From Myxococcota bacterium (GTDB taxonomy: Bacteria; UBA10199; JADFYH01): a stretch of 64,000 nucleotides of DNA. Shown in pieces: positions 5,393 through 57,886 of this stretch (position 1 is the first letter of the stretch; each line of letters opens with the position of its first letter). A program made the position numbers and the translations under genes. The stretch is taken from NCBI GenBank assembly GCA_052034865.1, contig JBPOIC010000039.1, positions 5,195-69,194 on the forward strand, given 5' to 3'. Below the pieces are notes generated by a model. That model saw only the letters and a program-made list of their open reading frames with translations. It did not search any database and was not told the origin of the DNA.

Positions 5393-5650
5393 AAAGAAAA
5401 GAGGGCGAGGGAGACCTTGCCCTTATAATTAGAAAGATTGTGAATCAGGCAGATAGCGGGTTCATCACACAAACTCAACCAAGAGTTTTATTGACAGTTT
5501 TTCAGGATCCAGTACTTATTCCCCCTAAAATCAATAAATCGTTCCGGTAGGAGTTGTGACAGTTCGTTTCGTCCCTCCCATGGTTTCCTCTTTAATTTCG
5601 GTGATACTGTACAATTGTTGTCATTCAGGATGTAGTTCCCGTTCATTGCT

Positions 5651-9441: not shown

Positions 9442-9639
9442 TGGGACTTTCTCACTGGGCGATCTGCTTCGTTAAAATTTCTTCAGAAAATCCTCACGTA
9501 CATCCCTGTACTCTCTGGTTTTCTTCAGGAATTTCGCCTTGCATTTCATCCCATTGAGAAAATCCTATTTAAATTTATTCCAGGATTTTCCTCATTTTAG
9601 AAAGAGGATGATTTCACCCTTCTTGACCGTCCTTTTTGA

Positions 9640-10917: not shown

Positions 10918-11032
10918 ACGGGAGTACAAAACTGAAGATTGATTGAAGAAAAAGTAACCTCGAAAAAAAAATCATTTTTAAAATTCAAACTCATGAATTG
11001 ACGGGCTGACCCTGTCTCGATACGGAAAACAA

Positions 11033-41290: not shown

Positions 41291-44200
41291 TCATTTTTTC
41301 TCTTCCATTTGCTGCACCAGTTGATCTGCAAGCTCTGAAATCGTTGGTCCTTTTAAAAGAAGGGCAATCGGAAGTTTGGTCTGAAGCCCTTGCTCGATTT
41401 CATTTTTGAGCTCAATGGCCATAAGAGAATCGAGTCCCAAATGATTGAGCGATTGCCCCGGCTTTAAACTTTCGGATGTCGATCCCAAAACACGCGCGAG
41501 TTTTTCAGAAATCACCGAAAGAAGCCATTCCCGGCGCTTTTCAGGCGGTTTCTTCAAATAAATTTCATATAAATCCTGTGGAGCTAAACTCGAAGGCACT
41601 CGATTTTGGGTCGTCTCAGGAGATTCCAGTTTTTTTAGCCAAAGCCTTCGTGATTCGGGCAAATTCTCCTGAAGTTTTTTTTGATCCCACGAAACAACAA
41701 TCGGATTGCGTGTCGAGAATCCCGGTGGATCCAACAAAAGTTTCTCCAAAACTCCAAATCCCTGATCCAATGAAAGAGGGTGAATGCCCCAGGCTTGCAT
41801 CCGTTCCACCGTTTTTTCATGGGTTGCCATTCCGACTTTGGCCCACGGTCCCCACACAATGCTTTGTGAGACAAGACCTTCCCGATTTCGCGCATGCGCC
41901 AGTCCATTCAAAAACGCATTGGCAGCGCTGTAGTTTGACTGTGCGTAAGATCCCATCGTGCCTGAAAGTGATGAAAAAAGAATAAAGTAATCCAGTGGGA
42001 TGGAGCGCGTGGCCTCATGCAGGTAAAAGGCTCCCATCGCCTTGGAAGTAAACACGCTTTGAAAATTTTCTTTAGTTTGATGCAGCAAAACTCCATCTTT
42101 CAGAACTCCTGCGAGATGAAAAATTCCTCGCAAGGGCGGAAGATTTTTTTGAAGGACATCGAGTAACGAATCTACCTCCGATCTTTTTGAAAGATCGGCC
42201 GAATGGACAAGCACGTGCGCACCTTCATTTTTCCAGCGGACCATTTCCTGAAGCTGATGTTCGGTGGGAGATTTTCGACTCACCAGAAAGAGATGACGGG
42301 CGCCTTTTGAAATCATCCATCGGGCAAGCTCAAAGCCCAAACCTCCCAGACCTCCGGTGATCAGATAACTGGCATCCCTTGAAAATGAGAACTCATGGGG
42401 TTTTGCCGCGAATGTTTTCGGGCGTTCGTTGAAAGTGAGAACAATTTTTCCCGTATTTTTACGCTGGGCCATGAAGCGAAAAGCATAAGGCGCGTCGCTG
42501 ATGGGAAAGGTTGTATGAGGGATTGGTTTTAAATGTTGATGTTCAAATTGAGAGATGAGTTCCGTGAAGAGTCGATGGGTAAGATCCTGGCGCTCGCGGA
42601 AAATGCGGTCCAAATCGATTGCAAAATAGGAAAGACTTTTCTGAAACGGTAAAAGCCCCAAGGCATGATTTTGATAGATATCGCTTTTTCCGATTTCCAG
42701 AAATCGTCCAAAAGGAGCAAGGGTTTGCAGGCTTTTGGAAATAAACTCCCCGGGAAGCGAGTTGAGCACAAGATCGACTCCGCGATCTTGAGTGAGAGTG
42801 AGAATCTCTTCGGCAAACTTTGTCGTGCGTGAATCAAAAACATGTTCCACACCCAGCGATTTTAAATACGCGCGTTTTTCATCGCTGCCTGCAGTGGCGA
42901 AGATTTCCAATCCTGTTTGTTGAGCGAGTTGAACGGCGGCCAATCCAACGCCACCGGCACCCGCATGAATGAGAATTTTTTCTTTTTTTCGCATGCGTCC
43001 CAGATCATGCAGGGCATGGGTGGCGGTCAGAAATGCCACTGGAACACTGGCCGCTTCTTCAAAGTTTAAATGTGCAGGTTTTAGCACAACGAGTGGAGCC
43101 GCGGTCGTGACGAAGTTTCCAAAGCTGTAGGGTGCAATTGCGATGACTTCATCGCCGACTTTAAAACCTTTCACGCGTTCGCCCAGACGCACAATTTTTC
43201 CCGAACACTCAGCGCCCAAAGGAACGGTCGTCTCACGCGCGCCGGGGTAAAGGCCTAGCGCTTTCAGGACGTCGCTGAAATTAAGACCCGCCGCTCTGAC
43301 GACAATTTCCACTTCATGATCCCCTGGCGCACGACGCACAACCGGTCGAAATCCCATCCCGTCCAGACTTCCGGACTGAACTATTTCCAGGCGATAGGCA
43401 TCGAAATCCTGAATGGATTTGTTTTGCTGTGGAGTCTTCGCAGGTGTTTCCGATGCAATTTTCAGACGGCACACCCATCGTCTGTTTTCGCGAATTAGAA
43501 ATTCATCTTCGTGCGTCGGCCGCATCAGCGTTTGAGTGAGGAGGGTGATTTCTGAAGAGGTCGGATGAGAAGGCAGATCAATGAGACAGAGAGAGAGTTC
43601 GGGGTGCTCCAGCTGTACGCTTCGAAGCATTCCCCAAAGGGCGGTCGCACTGACACCAGGATTTTCTGGGTCGAACGGATGCGCCTGGGCGCCCTGAGTG
43701 ACCACAGTCAGCTTTGGGTAAGAGGGGAGATCGGCTTGCAGGAGCGTTTTCAAAAAGGCGAGAAAATCGCCACAGATTTTTTCAGCCTCCGATATCCCTT
43801 CGAAAGATAAAGGATCGCAGAGAGAATCCATTTCGATCAAAAGATGCTGGCATTCAGACTGTCCCACATGAAACAGGTTTTTTGCATCAGACTCAGACGA
43901 CTCATTTTGGATCTCATCCTGAAAACTTTTCCAACTCTTCGTTAAGACACTCTGTCCCTTTTCTCGAAGTTCTTTTGCAAGAGGACTCGCTTCGTTGGCT
44001 GTCAGCACCAGCCAGGATTCAATTACCTTTACCTCCATCGGAAGAGGTGTTTCATCGATTTCCCATTCCTGCTCAAAAATCAGATTCTCGTTTGACGATT
44101 GGCTTGCCTTTGAAATCTTTCCCAGCCCCGTCAGATGAAGACCCGAAATTATTCCCAAAGTCTTTCCTTCGACATCAAAAAGAAAAATATCTGCCACGAT

Positions 44201-47200
44201 CTTCTCATCCAAAAAAGTGTCCGACTTTATTTTTGCATAGCTCCAGACCGTACTTCCCAAGTCTTTCTTTAAAAAAATCTCATCGATGCGGACTGGAAGA
44301 TAGAGATTTTCAATCGATGAAGATTCTGGAAGAGCGGCTGCCACCACTTGCAGGCAGGCATCCAGAAGGGCGGGATGAAAAGGAGCACTTTGCTCGGGGC
44401 TCTCTGCTTTTAAATTTTTCGGACTTTCAATAAATCCTAGCGCTTCTCTGTTATTTTTAAATAACTTTTGAATTCCCTGAAAAGACGGTCCGTACTCCAA
44501 TCCTGCCCACTTTAGCTTTTGATAAAAATCCTGCACGCCAACAGACTCACACACCCTTTCGCGAATGAAATGGAGGGATAGAGTTTCATCTTTCGATTCC
44601 GGTTTATTCCTTTCATAAGCGATTTCGGCACACGCCTGAAGGGTTTGGTCTGAATCCTCTTGAGAATAAATTTCAAATTCTGATTTGTAAGAAAGAGAGG
44701 AAGTGGAGCGGAGGATGAGAGTCTTTTGTTTTCCTTCATCCAAAAAGAGCGGTTTTTGAAATGAGATCTTTTTCAAAACGATAGAATCCTGCGCGTTTTG
44801 TTTTTTTCCTGCTTCGTAGAGATACGCGAGAGAAGCGGTTGCTGGAAAAAGGATTTCTTTTTGTACACGGTGATCGAGCAGGTAGGGAAAGGTTTTAAGG
44901 TCGATCCGGTGTTCAAATACCGATTCTGATTTTTTTCGTTGGATCGGCAAAAGTGCACTGGATGGTGCTTTGCCCCATTCTCCAAACCAGTAGGATTCCC
45001 TTGCAAAAGGATAAGTGGGGGCCAGCGGCAAGGGTGGAATCGTTTGTCCAAACACAGCTTTCCAATTGACCCACAGGCCGTGCTGATAAAGCGCCGATAA
45101 GGATTTCAGCATTTGATCGCGATCTTCTCCCTCATTTTTAAGACTTGAAAGCCAAAGCCTGGTGGTTCCTGTTTTCGCGAGCCCTCGTTTGGCCAGCAAG
45201 GTGAGGATGGGTTGCGGTCCGATTTCAATCAAGGCGTCGGCGCCTTCACGGATGAGCGTTTCAATGCCGGTAAAATAGCGGACAGGCTCACGCAAATGTT
45301 TGCGCCAATAAGTTGCGGTGGGTGCTGTTTCGAGAAGGTTTCCGGTCCGATTTGAAATCAGTGGAATCTGAGGTTTATAAAAAGAGATCTCTTTCGCTTT
45401 TTCTTCGAACGCATCAAGGATGGGATCCATCAAGGGAGAGTGAAAGGCATGTGATACATTCAAAGTCTGGGTGGCAATCTCAAGCGTAGTGAATTCATCT
45501 TGAAGTGCTTCAATCGCTTCCCGTTTTCCAGATAAAACAAGGGCTCTGGGTCCGTTGAATGCGGCAATCGAAACCTCGTGGGCGTAAGGTTTCAGCGAGG
45601 ATTCAATTTGCTCTTCAGTTGCAATAACGGCGAGCATGGTCCCATTTTTAGGAAGGCCATGCATGAGTTTTGCACGATGCGCGATGAGCGTAAGACCCTC
45701 TTCCCATTCCATCACCTTTGCGACACACGCGGCAACATACTCGCCCACGCTATGACCCAGGACAAAATCAGGTTCAATTCCCCAGGATTTCCATAGCTCG
45801 TACAAGGCATACTCGAGCGCAAAAAGTGCCGGCTGGGTATAGAGGGTTTCGTGGATGAGAGCGGGATTCATTTTAGAATCAAAAAGAATCGAAAGTAATG
45901 AAGTCTCAAGCACGGGTTTCAAAATTCCGTCGCAACGATCCAGCACTTTTCTAAAACAGGGCTCGGATTCATACAGCGAGCAGCCCATTCCCACATATTG
46001 CGATCCCTGGCCGGTAAATAAAAAAGCAATTCTGGGTTTCTTCTTTTGAGAGACAGAAAAATGAATTGAAGATTCTTTCGAGAAACCCTCTTTGTTTTCT
46101 AAAAACGATAAAACAAAATCGGACAGATTTTTTTTAAGCTCGTCCAGGGAGCATGGCAGAAAAAGCGAACGATGCTCAAAATCCGCTCGTCCTGCACATG
46201 CGGTGAAACAGACCTCCTTCAGGGAAAGATAAGAATTATTTTGAAGATAGGAAATCCAGCGTTCTGCGAGTGTTTTTAATCCCTCCACACTTTTAGCCGA
46301 GAGCTTGAAAGGATAAAGGTCTGCATCCTTAAGTTCGGTTGGAAGGGAATCTTTTTGCCTGGCTTCATTTTCTTTATTTATCCAGATTTCTTCAGGACCT
46401 CCAACAACCACATGGGCATTGGTCCCGCCAAATCCAAAAGAGCTGATCCCTGCAAACCTTTGCCTGTTCTGAAAATTCCATGACATCATTTGAGTGGGAA
46501 TCGAAAGTTTCAAGGCAGTCAGATCAATGTGCGGATTGATTTTTTTAAAGTGGAGGTGCGAAGGAATTTGACGATGTTTCAAAGAAAGTAAAACCTTGAT
46601 GAGCCCGGCAATTCCGGCGGCAGCTTCCAGATGTCCAAAGTTGGTTTTGACCGATCCGACTTTGCAAGGTGAGTCTGAAGGGCGATTTTTTTGAAGCACT
46701 TTTCCCAAGGCGGCCATTTCGATCGGATCACCCAGTGGAGTGCCCGTGCCATGGGCCTCCACGTAATCGATTTTTTCGGATGAAATTTTAGCTCTTTGCA
46801 AGGCCTGTAGAATCACATCCTGCTGGGCCTGCCCGTTCGGTGCGGTGAGTCCGTTGCTGCGCCCATCCTGATTGACAGCCGATCCACGAATGATTCCCAA
46901 AATTTCATCTTTATCTCGCACGGCCTCTGCAAGACGCTTGAGAATCACCACTCCACAGCCTTCGCCACGCACATAACCATCCGCTTTCTCATCAAAAGTT
47001 TTGCAGCGCCCTTCAGGGGACATCATCCGTGCCTGTGAAAAGGCGATGTTAAGCTCCGGTCTTAAGATCAGATTGACGCCTCCCGCGAGGGCCAGGTTGG
47101 ATTCCATTCTTCTCAAACTCTCACAGGCCATATGCACGGCGACAAGGGATGAGGAACAGGCCGTGTCGACGGCAAGACTGGGTCCCTGAAAATCAAAAAA

Positions 47201-49942
47201 GTAAGAAAGCCTATTGGCAGCGATGCTGTGGGCATTGCCAACTCCCGCATAGGCATCGATTTTTGAAGGATCTTCCCATTGCAGGTGGGCATAGTCGCTG
47301 CTGCTAATTCCCACAAAAACACCCGTCTTGCTTTTTTGAAGGGTGGAAGGATTAAGAGCCGCGGATTCAAAGGCCTCCCAACTCACTTCCAAAAGCAGGC
47401 GCTGTTGAGGATCCATGCGTGTGGCCTCACGCGGTGAGATTTTAAAAAAGCTGGCATCAAAAAAATCAGGACGGGTAATAAATCCGCCCCAGCGGGTGTT
47501 CATCTTTCCGGCCTCGCCAGGTCTTGGATCGTAATAATCCTCTTCTTTCCAGCGATCGGCAGGAACGGGAGTGATCGCATCTTTTCCAGATTCCAGTAAT
47601 TTCCAGAAGGCCTCCAGATTTTCGGCACCCGGAAAACGACAGGCCATGCCTATCACGGCGATGGGTTCATCCAAATCCCTCTGTTGATTCTCCTTCTTAT
47701 CAATCCGAGGGGTTTCCTCAGAATTCAAAGAGGCATGAGAGCCCATTATAGCCAAATCCGAAAATTCAGGATTTCCCAAATATTCAGCGAGGGCTTTCAT
47801 ATTCGGATATTCCCAAAGCAGGGTAGGGGAGAGTTTGCGTCCGAGCCAGATTTCGAGATCGCCTGAAAGGCCAACGAGTTCTTTTGAATCGAGGCCGTAA
47901 TGCGCAAAACTTTCCTGAGGATCAAGATCATTTGCGCTGACTCCTGCACGAGAAGAAACGGCATTGATAAGCCAGTTCAGGATTTGCTGAGGAAGAGGTT
48001 TTGAAAAATAAGTTTGTCCAGAATTTGCGGTATGGTCAGAATCCGTTTTTTTTACTTCCAGGATAGCATCCTGATTTTTGAATGGGAAAATTTTTGAAGG
48101 GAGATCTTTTTTCCATTGGGCCACAATCTCCATTTTTTTATTTAAGAAATCCTCGCGACAAAAACGGCGGGAAACTTTTCCGCTGGAGGTTTTGGGAAGA
48201 GTTCCCGGACGAATCAGGACAATCGCATGAATGTCGACCTCATGGATTTTTGCAACCTGCTCGCGAATGGCGGAAAAAATACGTTCATAGGATAGTGCTG
48301 AAGAAAGCTCCAGTTTTGAAAGCTCTTGAACAAGGATCAAAAACTCCTCTCCATCTTCATCCACCGAAAACGCAGCACCCGCTCCGGGTCTTAGGGCAGG
48401 ATGGGCCTTCTCAAGGGTTTCCTCCAGATCATGAGGGTAGTGGTTTTGACCATTGAGGATGATGAGATCTTTCAGGCGATCGGTAATAAAAAGTTCACCC
48501 TGGTCGAGAAATCCCAAATCGCCGGTTCGAAGATAGGTGCGATCATTTTTATAATTTGAGGACGGATTGATCACAGCACGAAAGACTTCGCGGGTGAGCT
48601 GCTTTTTTCCCCAATATCCTTGCGCGATACTGGGTCCACTTACCCAGATTTCACCGATCTCTCCGGGTTCACAAGGCAGGCAGGTTTCGGGATGAACGAT
48701 TAATACTTCCTGATCCTGAAATGAATTTCCACACCCGACGAGAATTTTTTCTCCTGAAGGGAGATCACTCAAATCAGAAGAATGAGAAACATCCGTCCTC
48801 TGTACCTCTATAGATCGCCCTTTCTCTGATTCTTTTCTTTCCTTGTTGGCAGGGCTGACACGTCCTTCTTTCAAGAGATCTCGCAGCACTCGTTTGAAAA
48901 CAGGTGGTTGCGTAGCATTTCCACCCGAGACCATCAGGGTTGCTTCTGCCAGTCCATAACAGGGATAGAAGGCCTCAGGTTTAAATCCACAAGGAGCAAA
49001 AACTTTTTGAAATTGTCGCAAGGTTTCCGCGCGCACAGGCTCAGCTCCACAAAAGGCCAGATTCCATGAAGAAAGATTTAGCTGACCAATCTGCTCTGGT
49101 GTAATTTTTCTTAAACATAATTCATAAGCGAAATTGGGCCCACCACTCGTGGTCGCCCTGAAATCACTGATGGCCTTGAGCCATAAAAATGGCTTTTGCA
49201 AAAAGGTGAGGGGCGACATCAAAACACTAAAGCCCCCGCCAAAAAGCGGCTCTAAAATCCCTCCGATCAGTCCCATGTCATGATAGGGTGGCAGCCATGA
49301 AACCCCGCGACTTTTTGGATGAAGATCAAATGCGCGATAAATCAGTCCTAAATTGTGCAAAAGATTTGCGTGTGAAAGCATGACCCCTTTGGGCTGACCC
49401 GTGGAGCCGGAAGTGTATTGAAGAAAAGCGAGATGAGCGGATGAAATTGGCGGGCATTGCCATTCCTTCTTTTCATCTTTTAAATGATCCGTTGTTTCCC
49501 AATTCAGATTTTTTAATGAAGGAGTTCCGGAAAAAATAAGCCGAGCCGTTTGATGAATCGATTCGGTCGTGAGAACCCATTTTGCCCCACTATCCTGAAG
49601 AATCGATTGCAGGCGCGGTAAAGTGCGTGAAAGTCGGTAAGGATCGGGAGGATAGGCCGGTACTGCAATCACACCGGCATAAAGACATCCAAAAAAAGCG
49701 GCGATGTAATCAAGCCCGGGAGGATAGAGCAGCAAGGCCCTTTCTCCCGGAGATACTTTTATTTTCAAATCGCTCGCAATCTGTCTGGCCCGATGGTCGA
49801 GCTCGCGATAGGTGAGGCTTGGGGAGGGCAGATCGTCGGATTCCAGAAAGGTGTAAAGCGTATGATCCGGCATTTCATCGGCATGATATTTCAAGAGATC
49901 AACGAGCGAAGAAATAGATGGAGACACGGAAGGACGAGTCAT
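41291..49942 (-). CDS. FAAL-ACP-KS-AT-DH-(pseudoKR)-ER-KR-ACP megasynthase (fatty acyl-AMP ligase fused to a fully reducing type I PKS module; no TE/R/ST release domain)
   Basis: 2883 aa. FAAL/AMP-binding TSGSTGQPKG (aa 177-186). ACP1 GLDS Ser686 (nt 47885-47887). KS DTACSSS Cys929 (47156-47158) plus EAHGTGT, NFGHLEAAAG. AT GQGSQ and GHSVGE Ser1398 (45749-45751) and HAFH 1498-1501 (malonyl-type). DH LDHRVQKEILFP His1691. ER GAGGVGLAAVQLA. KR TGGLGGLG. ACP2 LGLDS Ser2839 (41426-41428). Protein ends 44 aa after ACP2. Confidence 0.9.
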   Translation of the reverse strand: MTRPSVSPSISSLVDLLKYHADEMPDHTLYTFLESDDLPSPSLTYRELDHRARQIASDLKIKVSPGERALLLYPPGLDYIAAFFGCLYAGVIAVPAYPPDPYRLSRTLPRLQSILQDSGAKWVLTTESIHQTARLIFSGTPSLKNLNWETTDHLKDEKKEWQCPPISSAHLAFLQYTSGSTGQPKGVMLSHANLLHNLGLIYRAFDLHPKSRGVSWLPPYHDMGLIGGILEPLFGGGFSVLMSPLTFLQKPFLWLKAISDFRATTSGGPNFAYELCLRKITPEQIGQLNLSSWNLAFCGAEPVRAETLRQFQKVFAPCGFKPEAFYPCYGLAEATLMVSGGNATQPPVFKRVLRDLLKEGRVSPANKERKESEKGRSIEVQRTDVSHSSDLSDLPSGEKILVGCGNSFQDQEVLIVHPETCLPCEPGEIGEIWVSGPSIAQGYWGKKQLTREVFRAVINPSSNYKNDRTYLRTGDLGFLDQGELFITDRLKDLIILNGQNHYPHDLEETLEKAHPALRPGAGAAFSVDEDGEEFLILVQELSKLELSSALSYERIFSAIREQVAKIHEVDIHAIVLIRPGTLPKTSSGKVSRRFCREDFLNKKMEIVAQWKKDLPSKIFPFKNQDAILEVKKTDSDHTANSGQTYFSKPLPQQILNWLINAVSSRAGVSANDLDPQESFAHYGLDSKELVGLSGDLEIWLGRKLSPTLLWEYPNMKALAEYLGNPEFSDLAIMGSHASLNSEETPRIDKKENQQRDLDEPIAVIGMACRFPGAENLEAFWKLLESGKDAITPVPADRWKEEDYYDPRPGEAGKMNTRWGGFITRPDFFDASFFKISPREATRMDPQQRLLLEVSWEAFESAALNPSTLQKSKTGVFVGISSSDYAHLQWEDPSKIDAYAGVGNAHSIAANRLSYFFDFQGPSLAVDTACSSSLVAVHMACESLRRMESNLALAGGVNLILRPELNIAFSQARMMSPEGRCKTFDEKADGYVRGEGCGVVILKRLAEAVRDKDEILGIIRGSAVNQDGRSNGLTAPNGQAQQDVILQALQRAKISSEKIDYVEAHGTGTPLGDPIEMAALGKVLQKNRPSDSPCKVGSVKTNFGHLEAAAGIAGLIKVLLSLKHRQIPSHLHFKKINPHIDLTALKLSIPTQMMSWNFQNRQRFAGISSFGFGGTNAHVVVGGPEEIWINKENEARQKDSLPTELKDADLYPFKLSAKSVEGLKTLAERWISYLQNNSYLSLKEVCFTACAGRADFEHRSLFLPCSLDELKKNLSDFVLSFLENKEGFSKESSIHFSVSQKKKPRIAFLFTGQGSQYVGMGCSLYESEPCFRKVLDRCDGILKPVLETSLLSILFDSKMNPALIHETLYTQPALFALEYALYELWKSWGIEPDFVLGHSVGEYVAACVAKVMEWEEGLTLIAHRAKLMHGLPKNGTMLAVIATEEQIESSLKPYAHEVSIAAFNGPRALVLSGKREAIEALQDEFTTLEIATQTLNVSHAFHSPLMDPILDAFEEKAKEISFYKPQIPLISNRTGNLLETAPTATYWRKHLREPVRYFTGIETLIREGADALIEIGPQPILTLLAKRGLAKTGTTRLWLSSLKNEGEDRDQMLKSLSALYQHGLWVNWKAVFGQTIPPLPLAPTYPFARESYWFGEWGKAPSSALLPIQRKKSESVFEHRIDLKTFPYLLDHRVQKEILFPATASLAYLYEAGKKQNAQDSIVLKKISFQKPLFLDEGKQKTLILRSTSSLSYKSEFEIYSQEDSDQTLQACAEIAYERNKPESKDETLSLHFIRERVCESVGVQDFYQKLKWAGLEYGPSFQGIQKLFKNNREALGFIESPKNLKAESPEQSAPFHPALLDACLQVVAAALPESSSIENLYLPVRIDEIFLKKDLGSTVWSYAKIKSDTFLDEKIVADIFLFDVEGKTLGIISGLHLTGLGKISKASQSSNENLIFEQEWEIDETPLPMEVKVIESWLVLTANEASPLAKELREKGQSVLTKSWKSFQDEIQNESSESDAKNLFHVGQSECQHLLIEMDSLCDPLSFEGISEAEKICGDFLAFLKTLLQADLPSYPKLTVVTQGAQAHPFDPENPGVSATALWGMLRSVQLEHPELSLCLIDLPSHPTSSEITLLTQTLMRPTHEDEFLIRENRRWVCRLKIASETPAKTPQQNKSIQDFDAYRLEIVQSGSLDGMGFRPVVRRAPGDHEVEIVVRAAGLNFSDVLKALGLYPGARETTVPLGAECSGKIVRLGERVKGFKVGDEVIAIAPYSFGNFVTTAAPLVVLKPAHLNFEEAASVPVAFLTATHALHDLGRMRKKEKILIHAGAGGVGLAAVQLAQQTGLEIFATAGSDEKRAYLKSLGVEHVFDSRTTKFAEEILTLTQDRGVDLVLNSLPGEFISKSLQTLAPFGRFLEIGKSDIYQNHALGLLPFQKSLSYFAIDLDRIFRERQDLTHRLFTELISQFEHQHLKPIPHTTFPISDAPYAFRFMAQRKNTGKIVLTFNERPKTFAAKPHEFSFSRDASYLITGGLGGLGFELARWMISKGARHLFLVSRKSPTEHQLQEMVRWKNEGAHVLVHSADLSKRSEVDSLLDVLQKNLPPLRGIFHLAGVLKDGVLLHQTKENFQSVFTSKAMGAFYLHEATRSIPLDYFILFSSLSGTMGSYAQSNYSAANAFLNGLAHARNREGLVSQSIVWGPWAKVGMATHEKTVERMQAWGIHPLSLDQGFGVLEKLLLDPPGFSTRNPIVVSWDQKKLQENLPESRRLWLKKLESPETTQNRVPSSLAPQDLYEIYLKKPPEKRREWLLSVISEKLARVLGSTSESLKPGQSLNHLGLDSLMAIELKNEIEQGLQTKLPIALLLKGPTISELADQLVQQMEEKK

Positions 49943-49994
49943 AGAGGATCTCCAATAAGATGGGGAAAAACAAAATGAGAGAGGAGGTCTTACT

Positions 49995-51254
49995 TCAGGA
50001 GGCGGGTTTGGGCTCTTTTTCTCTCATTTTGCGAACGTATTCGAGAAAGAAAGCAAAAAAGATACTCATGAATAGTCCACCTACGAATGAAACCGCAACT
50101 ATCAGGAGCACCTGGGGTTTGGAAGGATGGGCGGGAGGAATCGCAGAATCAATAATCTGAAACGAAAGATCTTCTTTGGCCTCTTCGATCTTGGCCATTT
50201 GATATTGCTGGGTCAGTAGGCCGTTTACCTTGCCAAGCAGTTCACGTTGAAGAGTAAGATATTGGAGGTAAACCTGAGAAGGGACGGCGTGTACCACCCC
50301 TTCTTTTTTTGCTTCAGAAATTTTAGATTTTAAAGATTCACTTTGTTGTTGAACCTGTTGGGTTGCTGATCTCAATTCCTCGAATGTGGGTGGGGCTTCT
50401 TCCAGTTTTCCGACATGAACATCGATTTGGGGAAGGGTGCTGGAGATTTGATTGGAACTGTAGAATTGGTTGAGCTGTTTTCCGGCCTCCAGAAGATCCA
50501 TTTTATTTTTCTGCAACTGGTCTTCTATAAATATGCGGTTTCTTTTGGCGACTGTGAGCTGGTTGTTATTGATGAAATCCTGAAGGTAAACCAGAAAACG
50601 ATTGGTGATGGTCGCTGCAAGTTCTGGGTTTTTAAGCTCAACCTGAATTTTGATAAGATTGGTTTTTTTATCTTCTTCGACGCTTAAGACCTTTTTCTGA
50701 ATGGCCCGAACAGAGTCTTCAAGAATTTCCCGTTCAATCTTTGCCGGATCGTTTTCCTTGGAACCCAAAAAACTCATATCCGGAAGCCATTTTTTTTCTT
50801 TATCATCCCATCTTTTCTCAAAAAAATACGGCATCAGGTTAAAGTCTCTCACAATATTTTCAATCAAGGTCCTACTTTTTAAAATACCAATGATTTGACC
50901 GCTTTTTTGAGAGCCCAGTCCGAGCTGGCCTCCGACAAGGGGAATCGAGGCCGCTTGAGCTGCCAACGCAGCCAAAGCCCCACCCCCTCCACCCGATTGA
51001 GAAAGGGGCGTGATGGTTGCTTCTGCCTTATATTTTTTCTTTATCGTCAAGGCGGTTCCTGCTCCCAGCCCGGTACAAATAAAGGTCAGAAGAATAATTT
51101 TTCCCAGATGCTTTTTAAGGACACGAAAATAATCTAACAAATTGATTTCTTCTTCAGCAGGGTAAGGGGGATACCATCCATAAGGAGGGGAATAGCCCTG
51201 AGGATGAGGATGGAGAGATTGATCCGCCGATGGTTCGGAAGGGGATTGAGACAT
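49995..51254 (-). CDS. Polysaccharide co-polymerase (Wzz/GumC-like chain-length determinant; no kinase domain)
   Basis: N-terminal LLDYFRVLKKHLGKIILLTFICTGLGAG TM helix (Wzz motif), long coiled-coil periplasmic region, C-terminal TM LLIVAVSFVGGLFMSIFFAFFLEYV. Confidence 0.6.
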   Translation of the reverse strand: MSQSPSEPSADQSLHPHPQGYSPPYGWYPPYPAEEEINLLDYFRVLKKHLGKIILLTFICTGLGAGTALTIKKKYKAEATITPLSQSGGGGGALAALAAQAASIPLVGGQLGLGSQKSGQIIGILKSRTLIENIVRDFNLMPYFFEKRWDDKEKKWLPDMSFLGSKENDPAKIEREILEDSVRAIQKKVLSVEEDKKTNLIKIQVELKNPELAATITNRFLVYLQDFINNNQLTVAKRNRIFIEDQLQKNKMDLLEAGKQLNQFYSSNQISSTLPQIDVHVGKLEEAPPTFEELRSATQQVQQQSESLKSKISEAKKEGVVHAVPSQVYLQYLTLQRELLGKVNGLLTQQYQMAKIEEAKEDLSFQIIDSAIPPAHPSKPQVLLIVAVSFVGGLFMSIFFAFFLEYVRKMREKEPKPAS

Positions 51255-51279
51255 AAGTAACTTAAATGTAGAAAATCAG

Positions 51280-52458
51280 TTAGTTATTATTCGTAAGAGT
51301 TACAATTGTAGTTGTGGTAGCCAGTCCAAAGGAAATCAAACTCGTCACAAGCGATACCCAGGAGTCACGACTAAAGATTCTTTCAGGAATATAAATGGTA
51401 TCTCCAGGATTGATGAGAATATCTGAATCGGGTTTTAATTTTTTTACCTCGCCCCCAATACCCATGACTTTCACGTAGCCCTTAGCCATACGGGTCGCTC
51501 CTCCTGCCACCGCCAGATAATGCGAGAGATGATAGTTGTGATTGAAGTTATAGGCGCCTGGGGCAGCCACAGCACCAATCACAAAGACCCGGTCTTCAAA
51601 CGAAGGATAAAAAATATTGTCGTTGGGGAGCTGATTGAGATTGTAATCAAATTTGTTCTGGGTGGTGAACATGTGCGGGACGATGATCACATCCCCATTC
51701 AGAATGAGGGTTTGACTTAAGGTCTCGGGATTGTTGGTAATCTCAACGATGTCTTTTTTCTCATTCTCATCGAATCGAATGATACGTATCGGATCTTTAT
51801 GCGACACCCCCTGGGTCATGCCTCCGGCCAGTTTGAATATATCCAATATGCTCCGTTCGTTATTCAGCTCGTAAATTCCTGGGCGATTGACTGAACCTTC
51901 CACCTGAACAACTCTTTTTCGTAAAGGGATAAAGATGACGTCATTGTCCATCAGGTAGGGGTTATCCTCTAAATGTCCAAATACCTTATAAGAAATCAAA
52001 TCGACTTTTTTGGTTGTGGAAGCCCGCCTCAACTCCACATTCCGATCGGATCCATTTTTTTTGATGCCACCCGCAATCTGCAAGGCCTCGGATAAGCGTG
52101 TGGAGGCTCCAATGCGATAAGTGCCGGGTCGAATCACTTCTCCCAAAATATGAATTTGATACATGAGTCCGGAAGCCCCGAGAGATTCCCGAATGCTACT
52201 TCCTTCCATTCCTTCGAGCTGACGGCGAGTCATTGCACTTCCCACGCCGGCCGCCTTATCGCTAAGACCGCCACTTCCTAAAGAAGGGATGCCTTCCTCT
52301 TCGGTACGTGATCGCAGGCTCCCATCGCGCGTGCCCTCGCCCCCGACAAAAATTCCCTGTTGGGCGAAAAGGTTTAGCGGAAGGAAGGTTTGGAGAAGAA
52401 AGGAAATGAGAAGAAAGAAAGTAAAAAAACGAAATTTTGATAAGTTGGAAAGTTTCAT
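51280..52458 (-). CDS. Polysaccharide export protein (Wza/GumB-like, SLBB domains)
   Basis: Signal peptide; PGDVIIVP/GDTIYIP beta-grasp SLBB repeats; C-terminal hydrophobic helix. Confidence 0.65.
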   Translation of the reverse strand: MKLSNLSKFRFFTFFLLISFLLQTFLPLNLFAQQGIFVGGEGTRDGSLRSRTEEEGIPSLGSGGLSDKAAGVGSAMTRRQLEGMEGSSIRESLGASGLMYQIHILGEVIRPGTYRIGASTRLSEALQIAGGIKKNGSDRNVELRRASTTKKVDLISYKVFGHLEDNPYLMDNDVIFIPLRKRVVQVEGSVNRPGIYELNNERSILDIFKLAGGMTQGVSHKDPIRIIRFDENEKKDIVEITNNPETLSQTLILNGDVIIVPHMFTTQNKFDYNLNQLPNDNIFYPSFEDRVFVIGAVAAPGAYNFNHNYHLSHYLAVAGGATRMAKGYVKVMGIGGEVKKLKPDSDILINPGDTIYIPERIFSRDSWVSLVTSLISFGLATTTTIVTLTNNN

Positions 52459-52724
52459 GGAAGCGCGGCTTGTAACCGATCGATTTGTTAGGTGTCAATT
52501 GGTGTCCGAGATTCGGAAAGTCTCTGTGAAGCTGAGTTCGAAAGCCGGACACTTCTCGCTTGCTTACTTAAATACTTCTCGTTTCTTAACCAATTGATCT
52601 CTCTCTTTTTTTTGCTCTCATTGCTACATTTTTTCCGCTGCTGGCACATCCCCTGCATTTCCCATCTTTCGAGTCTTTGAAGTACGAACCTCTTCATTAT
52701 TTCTTTTAAAAACTAGGATTTTTT

Positions 52725-53324
52725 ATGAGACGTTTTCTTCTTTTTATTGTTTGTGGATTATTTCTTTCAAGCTTTTCAGGCTTTGCCAACGAGCCTACCC
52801 TCCACCAGCTCGAAAAGGCTGCTCTTCGTTACGGCAATGTCGATCCTGAAGAAATTGCTCACTGGAAAACCCGAGCCAAATGGTCTCCCTTATTTCCAAA
52901 AGTCTATGTGAGCTACGATCAGAAAGCGGCCAACCAGATCAATAATTCCATTCAGGATTCGGTTTCGGTCACGAGCACTGGCGTTACTCTCGGGCCTCCC
53001 GAATCCTCACTCAATCAAGACAACAATCTAAATCGTGGCTTTGAAGTCCGGGCGACCTGGGATCTCGACACCTTGATCTTTAATAAAGAGCTCCTCTCAC
53101 TTTCATCGGAAGCCAGGTATCGCAATTCGATGCGTGCACAAATTTTATCCGAATTACAGCAAACCTATTTCGAAAGAAAAAAACTTCTGCAACGCGAAGA
53201 GGGAAATTCCCGCGACACCTTATCTTCTTCCACCCAAATTCAGCTCGAAGAGCTTGAGGCAAAACTGGACTCTCTTACGGGAGGTTTTTTTACGAAAACT
53301 TCAGGAGATTCTTATGAAAAATAA
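52725..53324 (+). CDS. Hypothetical secreted protein
   Basis: 199 aa with signal peptide MRRFLLFIVCGLFLSSFSGFA, no recognised domain; overlaps start of next gene. Confidence 0.3.
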   Translation: MRRFLLFIVCGLFLSSFSGFANEPTLHQLEKAALRYGNVDPEEIAHWKTRAKWSPLFPKVYVSYDQKAANQINNSIQDSVSVTSTGVTLGPPESSLNQDNNLNRGFEVRATWDLDTLIFNKELLSLSSEARYRNSMRAQILSELQQTYFERKKLLQREEGNSRDTLSSSTQIQLEELEAKLDSLTGGFFTKTSGDSYEK

Positions 53325-55134
53325 ATTCAGCATTTTTCTTGATCCATTCGAGAATGGTCTTTTCATCAGGAAAATCTTTTTCCTGCTCATGTTTCTTGCC
53401 TGGATTCTTCCTTTTTCCTCCTGTTCCAATTTAGATTCGATCAGCTTTAAAAGCCTGCTCAACTCTCAAATTCACGTCACTCAAGTAACTCCCAGTACAC
53501 AGCGAGGACTTTCAGAGCTTTCCAAAATTGAAATTATTTTTTCAGATGCCATTCACGAATCCAGTTTGAGCCCGAATGCCATTTTTCTGGCTGAAGGAGA
53601 GATCGATTCTCAAAACTATGCCGAGCCTGAAAAAATTGAATCGGCCGTGATCAGTGGCGCGATTAAAAGAGTGGGGTCCTCCATAACCCTTCGGTCCGAG
53701 TCCAACATGGTGGATTTGAACCTTGATAACACAATATATGAAGGGATCTATACCCTCGTCGTAACGCCTCAACTCGAAGGTGAAAATCACATTCCTTTTA
53801 ATCAAAATCCTGGGATGTCTCCTTCGGCTTACTTCTGCTCGTTTTATGTTGGTTCTTCTACAAGCGCTGATCCATCCTCAAACTCATCGACTGAAACTTT
53901 AAATCCAGAATCATCGCCTTCTTCCCGACCAGAAGCTCTCGTGCTCAACGAAATTCTTTATGATGGAAAAGAAAGCGACACAGATGGATATGAATTCATC
54001 GAACTTTATGGGACCCCAAACGCAGAGCTGAGCGGCTATCAGGTGATTTTGGTGAATGGGTCCGATGGGGTGATTCAGAAAATCATTACGCTTCCTTCAA
54101 ATAGCAAAACAAACGATGAGGGCATTTTCCTGATTGCTGATCTCCAAACTGGTTCAACGACTAAAAGCCGTATTTCAGGCGCTCAATTACTGGAAAATTT
54201 CGATCCTCAAAATGGACCGGATGCCATTCAGCTTTTAGATGAAAAAGGAAATCTGATTGATGCCCTCACCTATGGAACAGGAGCTGTGGAGATGGCTAAA
54301 AATGGGCTTTCAATGGTGGAAGGAAATCCGTCCAAGGTTGTTAGTGCCGGTCACAGTCTTTCTCGCGTGGGTGGAAAAGATACAGATGAGAATTCGGTGG
54401 ATTTTACCGAACTTGAAATTCCCAGCCCAGGTGTGATCGAACTTCCAGAACAGGCAGTTCCGGAGTCGGCCCCGCAAGTAGGCGATTCCGGCTCAGATTC
54501 TCTGCAACCCATCTCTCAGCCCAAATCCAATCCATCCCCCTCTGATCCAAATCAGCAAACTCCTGAATCAAATCCGGGATCCACTCCTCCAGACCCTCAG
54601 GATCCGAACGAAAATCCTCCCTCTCATTTTCTGGTTCTTAATGAAGTTCTCTACGATGCGGTGGGCACTGATACGGATGGAAATGAATTTATCGAGATTT
54701 ACGGAACCCCAGACACGGATGTGGGTGGCTATCAAATCCTGATTCTCAATGGTGATGATGGAAAAATTTTGGACACGATATTTTTACCTGCCGGAGCGAA
54801 AGTCAGGGCGGACGGTTTATTTTTAATTGCGGACTCCAAGACAAGCCAGCCGACAGCTTCCAATATTTTAAATCCTGATTTCATCGACAACTTTGATCCT
54901 CAAAATGGGCCGGATGGGTTTCAGCTCTTAGATCCTCAGGGAAATCTTGTGGATGCTCTTTCTTACGGAACCGGCGCCTTCACCCAGGCTGAGAATGGTT
55001 TAATTTTTCTCGAAGGTTCGGCTGCGATCGACGTTTCAGCGGGCCATAGCCTTTCTCGAATGAATGGGGCCGATACCCAGCAAAACGCCCTAGATTTTCT
55101 TGATTTGACCAACCCAACGCCTGGGATATTATGA
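53314..55134 (+). CDS. Lipoprotein with N-terminal Ig-like region and two tandem lamin-tail domains (LTD)
   Basis: ATG 53314 after aggaga RBS; lipobox LPFSSC. LTD1 aa267-432 of ORF numbering (nt 53932-54429) LVLNEILYDGKESDTDGYEFIELYGTP. LTD2 (nt 54622-55125) LVLNEVLYDAVGTDTDGNEFIEIYGTP. Pro/Ser/Asp-rich linker between (54430-54621). Confidence 0.7.
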   Translation: MKNKFSIFLDPFENGLFIRKIFFLLMFLAWILPFSSCSNLDSISFKSLLNSQIHVTQVTPSTQRGLSELSKIEIIFSDAIHESSLSPNAIFLAEGEIDSQNYAEPEKIESAVISGAIKRVGSSITLRSESNMVDLNLDNTIYEGIYTLVVTPQLEGENHIPFNQNPGMSPSAYFCSFYVGSSTSADPSSNSSTETLNPESSPSSRPEALVLNEILYDGKESDTDGYEFIELYGTPNAELSGYQVILVNGSDGVIQKIITLPSNSKTNDEGIFLIADLQTGSTTKSRISGAQLLENFDPQNGPDAIQLLDEKGNLIDALTYGTGAVEMAKNGLSMVEGNPSKVVSAGHSLSRVGGKDTDENSVDFTELEIPSPGVIELPEQAVPESAPQVGDSGSDSLQPISQPKSNPSPSDPNQQTPESNPGSTPPDPQDPNENPPSHFLVLNEVLYDAVGTDTDGNEFIEIYGTPDTDVGGYQILILNGDDGKILDTIFLPAGAKVRADGLFLIADSKTSQPTASNILNPDFIDNFDPQNGPDGFQLLDPQGNLVDALSYGTGAFTQAENGLIFLEGSAAIDVSAGHSLSRMNGADTQQNALDFLDLTNPTPGIL

Positions 55135-56258
55135 AAAATCAAAGACTGAGATTTTTTCAGAAATCACAAGATCGTTTCAATAGATTGAAGAGCTTCACGA
55201 TCAGAATTTTCTATTCTCTTCTATTGATGGGATTGTTTTTAGAGTCGGCCTGTATCCGATATCCCAATTCCGGCATTCAGAACTCCTGGACTCAACAACT
55301 CCCTTCATCTCAACAAACGACTTCGGATGAAACGGATGATGAAACCTCTTCGAACTTCCTTAAAATCACTGCCTTGAATGTTGGTCAGGGAGACGCCACT
55401 TTGATCACAACCCCAAATGGAAAAAATCTTCTAATCGATGGTGGGCGGGATGGAAAGGGGCGGGATGTCATCCTTCCATACCTTAAATCTCGAGGAATTT
55501 CCTCGTTGGAGGCAGTCGTTGTGACTCATTACGATGGAGATCATTTGGGTGGAATCGATGAGGTGATCGCAGGCGAAGATGAAAAGTTAGGATCTGACGA
55601 TGATTGGATTCCAAAACTCGGTGTTTACGATCGTGGAGGTTATCCTTTTGATAACGCCCCTTTTTATTCGTCCTATCTTCAGGCGTCAGGAGAACATCGA
55701 AAGACCTTGGCAATTGGCGAGACGGTGAATCTAGATATAAATGTAGAGATCCGCTGTGTGGCCGTAAATGGGAAGGTTCAAAATGGAGAAAATATTGATT
55801 TATCTCAACCCGGTTTTTCAGAAATCGAAAATAGTGCCTCGATTGCCCTATTGATCACCTATGGAAATTTTACTTACCTGACTTCCGGCGATCTGACCGG
55901 TGGAGGAAGCCCCGGAGGTTACAAAACCCTGGATGTTGAAACTCCGCTGGCAAAGGTAGTAGGCCCAGTGACGGCGGTGCATGCAAATCACCACGGAAGC
56001 TTGTCGAGTTCCAATGAGATCTGGATTGAAACCCTCCAGCCTGAACTCGTATTTTTTAGTGTTGGGAATGAGAATGATTACCACCACCCTGCTCAAGAAG
56101 TGCTTGAGCGCTGGCAGGCGACAGACGCCGAAATTTGGCTCACCGAAAAAGGCTCTGGGGGATTTGTTCAGGGGGAGCATGTCGTCAACGGCTCTATCGA
56201 GCTTAGAACCGATGGCGAGAATTTCGAGATGGGTGAAGATCTGATTCCTTTAAATTAG
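55131..56258 (+). CDS. MBL-fold metallo-hydrolase lipoprotein (ComEC/Rec2 C-terminal-like)
   Basis: LKITALNVGQGDATLITTPNGKNLLIDGG ... VVTHYDGDHLGG is the ComEC-type beta-lactamase-fold motif. Lipobox LFLESAC. 4-nt overlap with LTD gene. Confidence 0.7.
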   Translation: MKNQRLRFFQKSQDRFNRLKSFTIRIFYSLLLMGLFLESACIRYPNSGIQNSWTQQLPSSQQTTSDETDDETSSNFLKITALNVGQGDATLITTPNGKNLLIDGGRDGKGRDVILPYLKSRGISSLEAVVVTHYDGDHLGGIDEVIAGEDEKLGSDDDWIPKLGVYDRGGYPFDNAPFYSSYLQASGEHRKTLAIGETVNLDINVEIRCVAVNGKVQNGENIDLSQPGFSEIENSASIALLITYGNFTYLTSGDLTGGGSPGGYKTLDVETPLAKVVGPVTAVHANHHGSLSSSNEIWIETLQPELVFFSVGNENDYHHPAQEVLERWQATDAEIWLTEKGSGGFVQGEHVVNGSIELRTDGENFEMGEDLIPLN

Positions 56259-56445: not shown

Positions 56446-57126
56446 ATGGAACTGATCGAAGAAATAAAACCATCTTTTAACGTCGATCCCCAATCCGAGG
56501 TTGAAAAAACCGAGAGAAAATGGGGCTATGAGGTGAGTAAACGCCTCTTCGATATCGTTTTTGCCCTCATCCAGATTCCCTTCCTTTTCCCTCTCATGGC
56601 TCTCATTGCCATCCTTATTAAAATCGATTCCAAAGGCCCTATCTTCTTTTCTCACCAAAGGGTTGGTAAAGGGGGAAAGTTATTTCATTGTTATAAGTTC
56701 AGGACGATGGTTGTAGGGGCGCACGAGCTGAAAGCAGATTTAGAACATCTTAATGAAATGGAAGGTCATGCCTTCAAAATGAAAAATGATCCGCGTGTGA
56801 CTCGCTTAGGAAGTTTTCTTAGAAAATATAGTTTGGATGAGCTACCGCAAATTTTTAATGTCATTAAAGGAGAAATGTCTTTTGTCGGGCCTCGTCCTCC
56901 TCTTCCTGAAGAAGTACAGAATTACCAGCCCTGGCATCGAAAAAGACTTTCGGTAACTCCTGGGATTACGTGTTTGTGGCAAATTAATGGTAGAAATGAG
57001 ATTCAAAGTTTTGATGATTGGGTGAGAATGGATCTTTTATACATTCAAAACTCATCTTTTTTACACGATCTGAAGATTATTCTTAAGACCGTTCCAGTGG
57101 TTCTTTCAAGACGTGGGGCGTATTAG
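56446..57126 (+). CDS. Undecaprenyl-phosphate sugar-1-phosphate transferase (small bacterial sugar transferase, WbaP/WecA-like C-terminal domain type)
   Basis: KRLFDIVFALIQIPFLFPLMALIAILIKIDSKGPIFFSHQRVGKGGKLFHCYKFRTM ... SFVGPRP are the canonical priming sugar-transferase motifs. Confidence 0.8.
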   Translation: MELIEEIKPSFNVDPQSEVEKTERKWGYEVSKRLFDIVFALIQIPFLFPLMALIAILIKIDSKGPIFFSHQRVGKGGKLFHCYKFRTMVVGAHELKADLEHLNEMEGHAFKMKNDPRVTRLGSFLRKYSLDELPQIFNVIKGEMSFVGPRPPLPEEVQNYQPWHRKRLSVTPGITCLWQINGRNEIQSFDDWVRMDLLYIQNSSFLHDLKIILKTVPVVLSRRGAY

Positions 57127-57873
57127 ATTTTGGTTCATGACTAGCAAATTGGTTTTGCTTTGAGGAGTTTCAGGATCAATGGGTAGAGGTTTTCATGCTT
57201 GTGATTGAAACTGAACTCACATTCTTTTAAGTGTAAATAGAAAGTCGATTTTCTCATCCCGCGAAACTTCGCAAGCCTCACCTTCGCCAGTCCCCAAAAG
57301 TTCTAAATTCCATTAATGTGGGTCTTATCTGTGGCAAAGACGTTCGCCCCATGGTTGACCCGGTAATGCCTTCGGTATCCTAAATCCACCAGTCCATCAT
57401 AGGCCCGCCATTTGTTCGAATGAATCGTGTTCTTAAAATCGACCTTTCCCCGGATGACCGCATGCAACGTAGATCTGGAGCAATCGGGCACGATCTCTGT
57501 ATAGACCTTGCCGTTGCGCTTATAGACACCAAACACAATCGTTTTTCCTAAAGCTCCACGCCATCTTTTCCCTCGAACGCGTCTGGCTCCAAAGAACGAC
57601 TCGTCTACTTCCACTTCTCCTTGAAAAGGCGATTCTCTCTCGCAACTTTGAGCAATGAGTTGACGGATGAGGGTTAGATAACGATTGAATCGTATTCCGA
57701 TTAAGTCCTGACAATTGAGCAATCTGAGTTGCCTGCAAATCCACCGAAAAATATCGGACAATTTCCCGGATTTTAGCCCTCGAAATCTTTGAACCATGAA
57801 AACACCCGCGAACCCTTATCATCTCTAGCTTTTTAGACATTATTCATGCCATTTGCTAGTCATGAACCAAAAT
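57127..57873. mobile_element. IS1595-family-derived miniature element with near-perfect 25-bp terminal inverted repeats and decayed transposase
   Basis: IRL attttggttcatgactagcaaattgg (57127-57152). IRR ccatttgctagtcatgaaccaaaat (57849-57873) has one indel versus the reverse complement. Begins immediately after the sugar-transferase stop codon. Confidence 0.6.
57303..57840 (-). pseudogene. IS1595-family (ISXO2-like) DDE transposase, frameshifted and C-terminally truncated
   Basis: N-terminal frame (57520-57840) has HTH region FSVDLQATQIAQLSGLNRNTI. C-terminal frame (57303-57797) has ESPFQGEVEVDESFFGARRVRGKRWRGALGKTIVFGV...PDCSRSTL...HSNKWRAYDGLVDLGYRRHYRVNHG...THINGI, then stop. The usual ESFWS... 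tail is absent. Confidence 0.6.
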
Positions 57874-57886
57874 TATTTTGTCACTC

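Follow-up and report, generated by a model that had tools for sequence, protein, structure and literature searches.

What would a relative of the nuclease domain of the competence protein ComEC do next to a lipoprotein with lamin-tail domains (LTDs), in a locus for polysaccharide export? The question is raised by three overlapping genes, here named U, A and B, in a 64,000-nt stretch of contig JBPOIC010000039.1 from a Myxococcota bacterium (the window; all positions are those of this stretch, position 1 being its first letter). Gene B encodes a member of the metallo-beta-lactamase (MBL) superfamily, A encodes the LTD lipoprotein, and U a small secreted protein; the three are one translationally coupled envelope module whose members were found together in 14 other loci. 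Our preferred reading, drawn by analogy with characterised proteins and held with moderate confidence, is that B is most likely an envelope-tethered Mn-dependent DNase for which A serves as an LTD accessory partner.

A free-standing relative of the ComEC nuclease domain

The Pfam family Lactamase_B (PF00753) matches B with 46.3 bits against a cutoff of 22.7, and 228 MBL chains of the PDB match it at E<=1e-3, which places the protein in the MBL superfamily. The best curated family is ComEC_Rec2 (TIGR00361; E=1.4e-24), although the score of 86.3 bits stays below the cutoff of 190.05 because only the C-terminal domain aligns (positions 441-512 of the model, approximately, plus its C-terminal part). 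Among PDB sequences, ComEC's beta-lactamase-like domain (9ic4) aligns with residues 77-343 of B (267 aa, E=2.2e-24), and full-length ComEC (30bt) was retrieved at E=1.5e-21. An AlphaFold2 (AF2) model built with 34 homologues has a mean predicted local distance difference test score (pLDDT) of 89.7; in it, a helix (residues 2-41) is connected by a disordered tether (45-71) to a compact MBL domain. In a Foldseek search with this model 9ic4 came first (E=8.5e-22, TM-score 0.83 on the target), Pce/CbpE second (E about 3e-12, TM-score 0.65-0.67), and PhnP-type diphosphatases and RNase J/CPSF nucleases followed.

Metal-ligand motifs I-V are all present in B. Residues D103, H133, D137, H138, N234, D254, H287, H288, S290 and H319 are invariant in the 34-sequence alignment, and D135 is the only metal-ligand position that varies (D or H). 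The ComEC domain differs from Pce in its motif II, which has an Asp, and in its motif III, which has an Asn (Silale et al., PMC8579336); B shows the same signature in HYDGDH (aa 133-138) and in the invariant N234. Mutation of D600, D602, H603, H725 or S728 impairs the nuclease domain of Moorella glycerini ComEC (2025 NAR study), and in the alignment with 30bt these residues correspond to D135, D137, H138, H287 and S290 of B, respectively. A preliminary description of the stretch had recognised a ComEC/Rec2-type MBL motif in B and LTDs in A; the profile searches support both assignments, and the metal-binding set of B is complete on alignment.

B is not ComEC, because it has neither a channel domain nor an oligonucleotide-binding (OB) fold: no Pfam match to the Competence domain or to DUF4131 (OB fold) was detected in B, and its N-terminus forms a single hydrophobic helix. 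Judged from its sequence, B is a free-standing counterpart of the ComEC nuclease domain with a full catalytic residue set and, by homology, a predicted binuclear-metal phosphodiesterase.

The domain of ComEC to which B is homologous degrades the non-transforming strand, so that B might be a trans-acting competence nuclease, a periplasmic lipoprotein serving a ComEC channel that has no MBL domain of its own. Almost half of ComEC proteins are of this kind, how they degrade that strand is an open question in the literature (on which B has a marginal bearing), and a lipoprotein with the 30-residue flexible tether of the AF2 model could reach an inner-membrane channel. We nevertheless consider this role improbable, as comEA, comEC, comF and pil genes were not found near the module in any locus examined, and the linkage of B is to the LTD protein and, in this lineage, to exopolysaccharide (EPS) genes.

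The preliminary description had called B a lipoprotein, for which the signs are mixed. Its own lipobox, L-E-S-A-C41, is atypical in having Glu at position -3, but the aligned Cys follows canonical boxes (LFSSC, FFSAC, LLNAC) in most homologues. The annotated ATG, which overlaps the stop codon of A, gives a signal peptide of 41 residues; with a start at the in-frame TTG at 55185, the signal peptide would have 23 residues (LKSFTIRIFYSLLLMGLFLESAC) and be more typical of lipoproteins, and the start of B is uncertain. B also contains an acidic insertion, AGEDEKLGSDDDWIPKLG, at 55578-55628 (aa ~150-166; family consensus AGxDGxxGTxDDxxP), which is similar to a Ca2+-binding loop; most B homologues have it, but it is cleanly deleted in the subclade P0019-P0024. 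Distant B-type proteins that have no LTD partner carry FlgD-Ig, TIG or type IX secretion system (T9SS) sorting domains instead.

Gene organization and linkage

The three tightly spaced open reading frames (ORFs) are listed in the table. The extents of A (606 aa) and B (375 aa) on the forward strand and their 4-nt overlap had been described correctly, but the description of the locus as a two-gene operon has to be amended, as A is preceded by U (199 aa), which shares 11 nt with it and accompanies A and B in other loci. In the A/B overlap (ATGA) the start codon of B lies over the stop codon of A, and the 11-nt U/A overlap recurs in two related loci (L082, L083); together the overlaps indicate coupled translation. 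Shine-Dalgarno sequences are recognisable before U and A, the latter being AGGAG, 8 nt 5' of the ATG. An independent gene call on a Logan assembly of the same sequence (L001) gave identical gene boundaries, and the same proteins are present unchanged in an NCBI record and in Logan run SRR34217545. The intergenic region upstream of U is presumed to be a promoter region shared with the divergent gene; a promoter and terminator scan gave counts not above shuffled expectation. Rfam yielded nothing at gathering threshold across the whole window and nothing at E<=1 over 52400-52800, so that these searches gave no support for a regulatory RNA in the leader.

Linkage was counted in 91 fetched loci searched with hidden Markov models (HMMs) of the three families. 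Besides the window, 14 loci contain U, A and B together; two further loci have A and B without U, and one short contig has U and B. The genes are colinear, in the order U-A-B, in the window and in L002, L082, L083, L084, L091 and L092, whereas B diverges from U-A in L003, L017, L021, L045, L047, L049, L087 and L088 (in L088 both neighbours match the U and LTD profiles, and the arrangement is resolved only to 'opposite strand'). In L004 and L007 it is A that diverges from B. In all, A and B are neighbours in 17 fetched loci besides the window, with 6 colinear, 10 divergent and L088 as a further case. Moreover, an LTD is fused to a B-type MBL domain in protein P0112, as well as in giant ORFs from L030, L036 and L050 (metagenome-assembled genomes of Aminicenantes and Acidobacteriota). 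That A and B stay adjacent through rearrangement argues for selection, and the functional pairing proposed for them earlier is reinforced both by their adjacency in two arrangements and by the LTD-MBL fusions in other phyla. The case for a functional link between A and B, and of U with both, is strong.

These data bear directly on the view that A and B are neighbours by chance, or that B is a beta-lactamase, a hydrolase of small molecules or an MBL-type anti-phage effector, which we regard as highly improbable. B does give generic N-terminal matches to the AHM-type beta-lactamase, Avs1a, LmuA and DRT MBL models, but they span only about residues 77-148 and lie far under the curated cutoffs (55.7 against 590; for Avs1a, 43.5 bits against 420), and chance is difficult to reconcile with an adjacency that survives rearrangement and with domains that are fused elsewhere. 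An anti-phage effector was rejected on the same partial match, on the signal peptide of B, defence effectors being cytoplasmic, and on the lack of any defence or protease partner at the locus.

Table. Features of the U-A-B module and of the adjoining genes in the window
Feature	Position	Strand	Basis
Gene U, first gene of the operon; 199-aa secreted protein with Sec-type signal peptide and no lipobox	52725..53324	+	ORF
Gene A, 606-aa lipoprotein with Ig-like N-domain and two LTDs	53314..55134	+	ORF list, Pfam, homologue profiles
A, signal peptide ending in lipobox F-S-S-C37	53314..53424	+	Motif inspection; Cys37 invariant in 41 aligned homologues
A, N-terminal Ig-like (Big_5-type) domain, aa 38-195	53425..53898	+	Big_5 in homologues
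A, LTD1, aa 200-375, net charge -16	53911..54438	+	Pfam LTD, family HMM
A, 53-residue linker rich in Pro/Ser/Asp/Gln, aa 376-428	54439..54597	+	Composition
A, LTD2, aa 429-606, net charge -22	54598..55131	+	Pfam LTD, family HMM
Gene B, 375-aa free-standing MBL phosphodiesterase, ComEC C-terminal-domain type, putative lipoprotein	55131..56258	+	Profiles, PDB matches, AF2 model
B, signal peptide ending at Cys41 (atypical lipobox L-E-S-A-C)	55131..55253	+	Motif inspection
B, MBL catalytic domain, aa 76-375	55356..56255	+	Alignment, Foldseek
B, motif II, H133-Y-D135-G-D137-H138	55527-55544	+	34-sequence alignment
B, motif III, N234	55830-55832	+	34-sequence alignment
B, motif IV, D254	55890-55892	+	34-sequence alignment
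B, motif V, H287-H288-G-S290	55989-56000	+	34-sequence alignment
Divergent intergenic region, 266 nt, presumed shared promoter region	52459..52724	.	Between SLBB/Wza-like gene (-) and U (+)
SLBB/Wza-like export protein, divergent from U	51280-52458	-	Pfam
Wzz-type co-polymerase	49995-51254	-	Pfam
Fatty acyl-AMP ligase-polyketide synthase (FAAL-PKS), 2883 aa, FAAL-ACP-KS-AT-DH-ER-KR-ACP, highly reducing type I	41291-49942	-	Pfam
Small priming phosphoglycosyl transferase (Bac_transf), 187 nt 3' of B	56446..57126	+	Pfam E=2.7e-70; TIGR03025 309 bits

The LTD lipoprotein

The Pfam LTD family (PF00932) matches A in two stretches with 60.1 bits against a gathering threshold of 34.3, the HMM units lie within about 30 nt of the boundaries proposed earlier, and an LTD is present in 39 of 41 A homologues. 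The Ig-like N-terminal region is marginal in the window protein itself (Big_5, E=0.03) and is upheld through the homologues, 28 of 41 of which match Big_5 (best E=1.1e-8). On motif inspection F-S-S-C37 was accepted as a bacterial lipobox ([LVI][ASTVI][GAS]C). A gave no match among PDB sequences.

The preliminary description had also noted the linker, in which Pro, Asp and Ser abound, and the strings ENFDPQNGPD / DNFDPQNGPD and SAGHSLSR, all of which are there, and had considered the two LTDs to be clearly recent duplicates. Paralogy is evident, as LTD1 and LTD2 share 53% amino-acid identity (E=7e-68), but recency is not. The two units are 56% identical in DNA and 32% at third codon positions, and only 42% of their identical residues use the same codon. 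Each window LTD is closer to single-LTD orthologues (60-65% identity) than to the other copy in the same protein, and in a neighbor-joining tree the window LTD2 groups with the LTD2 of P0122, an orthologue of 46% identity. One LTD copy is found in 80, and two copies in 14, of 95 A homologues. NFDPQNGPD occurs verbatim in 69 of the 109 LTD units of the A family, so this string is a family signature motif and no sign of recency. A recent duplication is excluded by the saturated synonymous positions, the closer single-LTD orthologues and the family-wide motifs; the duplication is real but old.

The secreted protein U

Gene U is a conserved, translationally coupled partner of A and B. No Pfam, NCBIfam, PADLOC or PDB sequence-profile match was found for its product, which has 28 close homologues and, in a profile search, 2283 representative clusters of relatives at E<=1e-3. 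The AF2 model is weak (pLDDT 65.8), with helices at residues 26-52, 114-157 and 168-193; it consists of two N-terminal helices and a C-terminal helical hairpin and leaves the most conserved segment (57-119) unmodelled. Foldseek retrieved nothing from the PDB with this model at E<1. The possibility that U is a half-TolC/OEP protein was discarded as unsupported, as no Pfam OEP match was found at E<=10 and hhalign gave a probability of 0.7% against an approximate Escherichia coli TolC sequence. U plausibly is a scaffold whose central segment folds on binding, and the U-like domain appears to be an undescribed domain family. It often constitutes the C-terminal ~170 aa of ~520-aa proteins with an N-terminal beta-propeller (Reg_prop/BNR/Ycf48-like; P0289, P0297, P0318, P0341 and similar proteins, and L089 6001-7692), which sit in unrelated contexts without A or B and give no functional clue.

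Genomic context

The window is chromosomal and contains a nuo operon and genes for a FadL-like outer-membrane protein and methylmalonyl-CoA mutase; the FadL-like protein indicates a diderm organism. Divergently from U, the genes for the SLBB/Wza-like protein, the Wzz-type co-polymerase and the FAAL-PKS follow one another (41291..52458), and this order is repeated in L082, L084, L091 and L092. The priming transferase gene is found at an equivalent position in L082, L083, L084 and L091. The window and L082, L083, L084, L091 and L092 have one core arrangement in common, FAAL(-PKS) - Wzz - SLBB <-> U - A - B - priming transferase, even though the B proteins of these five are only 49-60% identical to that of the window. 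The conserved FAAL-PKS/Wzz/SLBB arrangement suggests that a lipid or polyketide moiety is tied to the exported polysaccharide, possibly as a glycolipid or a lipid anchor. The counterpart of the FAAL-PKS in L091 and L092 is a separate FAAL-ACP gene, which is followed by a thioesterase gene in L091 and by a PKS gene in L092.

The polysaccharide-locus setting recognised in the preliminary description is thus kept in six contigs of this lineage. It is a stable feature of the lineage and not universal to the module. In the loci with a divergent arrangement the neighbours include genes for a single-stranded DNA-binding protein (SSB) and a SurA-like protein, gyrA, purB/purC, nusA/infB, mutL and ubi genes, and no polysaccharide genes were found within the 7-8 kb flanks of these ten loci, which rules out a universal link with polysaccharide loci. 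In L049 the SSB gene (4984-5523) lies just downstream of A, with gyrA nearby, and in L047 mutL (9261-11024) is convergent with B; two such cases of DNA-metabolism flanks are too few to tell from chance. L085 (8001-9002) and L086 (7001-8002), contigs labelled UBA10199 (a phylum), encode a B-type MBL lipoprotein (46% identical, a sister clade of B) with no LTD or U partner; it is located between a gene of the SNF2-family helicases and Wzz/SLBB/Bac_transf genes, with Wzi nearby.

Probable function of the module

The homology of B with ComEC, together with the fusion of LTDs to secreted nucleases of four unrelated types (EEP/ExeM, DNase I, the thermonuclease Hvo_1477 and the haloarchaeal MBL protein 'ComA'), makes an envelope DNase with an LTD accessory the simplest reading. 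DNA is the most likely substrate of B by analogy with its nearest characterised homologue. The ComEC domain is a Mn2+-dependent endonuclease and 5'-3' exonuclease that binds DNA very weakly and becomes much more active when any DNA-binding domain is tethered to it (PMC8579336; 2025 NAR study), properties that provide a rationale for an accessory partner. Deletion of the LTD of ExeM lowers its activity in vitro (PMC6085458). The association of bacterial LTDs with membrane-proximal phosphoesterases, which had been invoked in the preliminary description, agrees with Mans et al. 2004, who, as quoted in PMC6085458, noted that these domains accompany membrane-associated phosphoesterases of the MBL, synaptojanin and calcineurin types. 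The location of the module within an EPS export locus fits a role in the processing of matrix or extracellular DNA (eDNA).

In the mechanism that we propose, B would cut DNA as an endonuclease and 5'-3' exonuclease, like ComEC, and would degrade extracellular or periplasmic DNA at the envelope. A would be a co-anchored accessory lipoprotein whose Ig-like and LTD domains position or tether the enzyme or its substrate, in a role comparable to that of the fused LTD in ExeM-type nucleases or of the OB fold for the ComEC nuclease domain. U would be a secreted helical partner that probably serves A as a scaffold. In this lineage, the module would form part of a Wzz/Wza-type locus for polysaccharide export and would probably be regulated together with it. 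We infer all of the following: the DNA substrate, the metal, the physical interaction between A and B, their topology (periplasmic or surface) and the physiological role.

Several observations weigh against a DNase. A and B stand out in this genome by their acidity: the net charge is -56 for A, -16 and -22 for its LTDs and -26 for the MBL domain of B, as compared with only -6 for the ComEC domain, and all 109 LTD units of the family have a pI of 4.05-4.5, whereas neighbouring envelope proteins have 8.5-9.3. Such acidity disfavours direct DNA binding by the LTDs unless it is cation-bridged. The preliminary description had proposed a surface-anchored pair that binds and hydrolyses nucleic acid (or phosphoesters); the pairing of A and B is sustained, but nucleic-acid binding by the LTDs is disfavoured by their charge. 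Furthermore, Pce/CbpE is the second-closest structure (E about 3e-12) and position 135 is His, not Asp, in some syntenic orthologues, such as P0004, which means that fold and motifs do not fix the substrate. The EPS-locus position is kept in six contigs, and B occurs alone in Wzi/Wzz/SLBB loci of UBA10199. The LTD of ExeM is dispensable for extracellular DNA degradation in vivo (PMC6085458). In a search of the literature we found no experimental studies of LTD-MBL proteins or of the U-A-B module, and no activity has been reported for any free-standing member of the B family. To our knowledge, no free-standing ComEC-type MBL protein has been characterised, the characterised members of the B branch being ComEC domains only.

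Some of these points are better accommodated if B is a glycopolymer- or lipid-linked phosphodiesterase that acts on the product of the surrounding locus, with A as a glycan- or matrix-binding Ig/LTD protein. Possible reactions would be the removal of a phosphodiester-linked substituent, as performed by Pce, or the release or trimming of the polymer from a phospho-linked carrier or anchor. We consider this reading a serious rival, although less likely than a DNase. It would account for a core gene order that is retained in six contigs at 49-60% identity of B and for UBA10199 contigs with B alone beside Wzz/SLBB/Bac_transf/Wzi; Pce/CbpE is not only the second-best structural match but also the closest non-ComEC relative in the literature, the acidity of A and B suits a cationic or amino-sugar polymer, or Ca2+ binding, better than DNA, and the locus contains amino-sugar enzymes (DegT, dTDP-sugar isomerase). 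However, ten other loci place the module among housekeeping genes without polysaccharide genes in their 7-8 kb flanks, no choline- or carbohydrate-binding Pfam domain was found in A or B, and the nuclease is favoured by the motif II/III signature as well as by the best matches in sequence and in fold, with an E-value about 10 orders better than that of Pce.

A more specific version, in our opinion doubtful, is that U-A-B performs a dedicated extracytoplasmic processing step in the Wzz/Wza-type export of a FAAL-PKS-linked polysaccharide or glycolipid. The MBL enzyme would cleave a phosphodiester, the acidic LTDs would bind the polymer and U would act as scaffold; the target may be a phosphodiester of the polymer, its substituent, or the lipid or carrier linkage, and the LTD ligand may be a cationic or amino-sugar polymer. 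If true, both the ComEC-type MBL fold and bacterial LTDs would be given an enzymatic role that is new for them.

Comparison with known systems

The nuclease domain of ComEC (M. glycerini 9ic4, Moorella thermoacetica, Bacillus subtilis) shares with B the H-x-D-x-D-H motif, the motif III Asn, the motif IV Asp and a position outside the cytoplasm. Unlike ComEC, B is a free-standing, putative lipoprotein with an LTD protein as partner and without competence channel or OB fold, and unlike the ComEC domain it has insertions (aa ~150-166, ~257-270), a C-terminal beta-hairpin extension and a much higher acidity. Pce/CbpE, a surface phosphodiesterase, resembles B in its MBL fold, and Pce, the teichoic-acid phosphorylcholine esterase, acts on a cell-envelope glycopolymer. 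However, Pce has His where B and ComEC have the motif II Asp (HxHxDH in the Pce type) and motif III Asn (PMC8579336), and its sequence match with B reaches only E=0.0038; it also contains choline-binding repeats, none of which were found in B by Pfam, so that B does not belong to the Pce/CbpE type.

Similar to the A-B pair in domain content are the haloarchaeal 'ComA' lipoproteins (Halobacterium NRC-1 ComA, Hlac_1867), compared here by their description, which combine an MBL domain (COG2333) with an LTD, have a lipobox, and have been proposed to function in DNA metabolism and biofilms. They differ in being archaeal and in having the domains fused; a U-type partner has not been described for them, nor have they been reported in polysaccharide loci. 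LTD nucleases such as Shewanella ExeM, the DNase I-family fusions and Haloferax Hvo_1477 likewise combine an LTD with an extracytoplasmic phosphodiesterase, either membrane-anchored or secreted, and are linked to eDNA and biofilms, but their catalytic domain is EEP, DNase I or thermonuclease, not MBL, and the LTD is fused to it. The association of LTD and MBL domains is therefore already known, as fused lipoproteins in haloarchaea. What is new here is that the two parts are encoded separately in one operon, with a third partner that is conserved and a fixed place in a FAAL-PKS/Wzz/Wza locus, and that the LTDs are extremely acidic.

As the module separates the catalytic part from the LTD part and adds a third partner, it offers a clean genetic system for the role of LTDs, in which substrate binding, envelope tethering and matrix binding could each be addressed. 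If B is a nuclease, an uncultured lineage would have eDNA processing hard-wired into a locus for EPS export; if its target is a polymer, the ComEC/Pce branch of MBL enzymes would have a wider chemistry than is known.

Other genes of the locus

Beyond the priming transferase, the locus continues with two insertion sequence (IS) fragments, a sulfatase-family gene, a GT4 glycosyltransferase gene and dTDP-amino-sugar genes (DegT, dTDP-sugar isomerase). The IS remnants (57303-59108, reverse strand) lie between the priming transferase gene and the remaining sugar genes and are absent from this position in L082-L084; their ORFs correspond to DDE_Tnp_IS1595 (164 aa) and to an HTH_28/29/32 transposase-like protein (303 aa). 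The sulfatase-family (PF00884) gene of the sugar locus (59267-60655, reverse strand) is not kept in related loci. PF00884 includes phosphoglycerol and phosphoethanolamine transferases, and a member of this family could add phosphodiester-linked substituents to the polymer.

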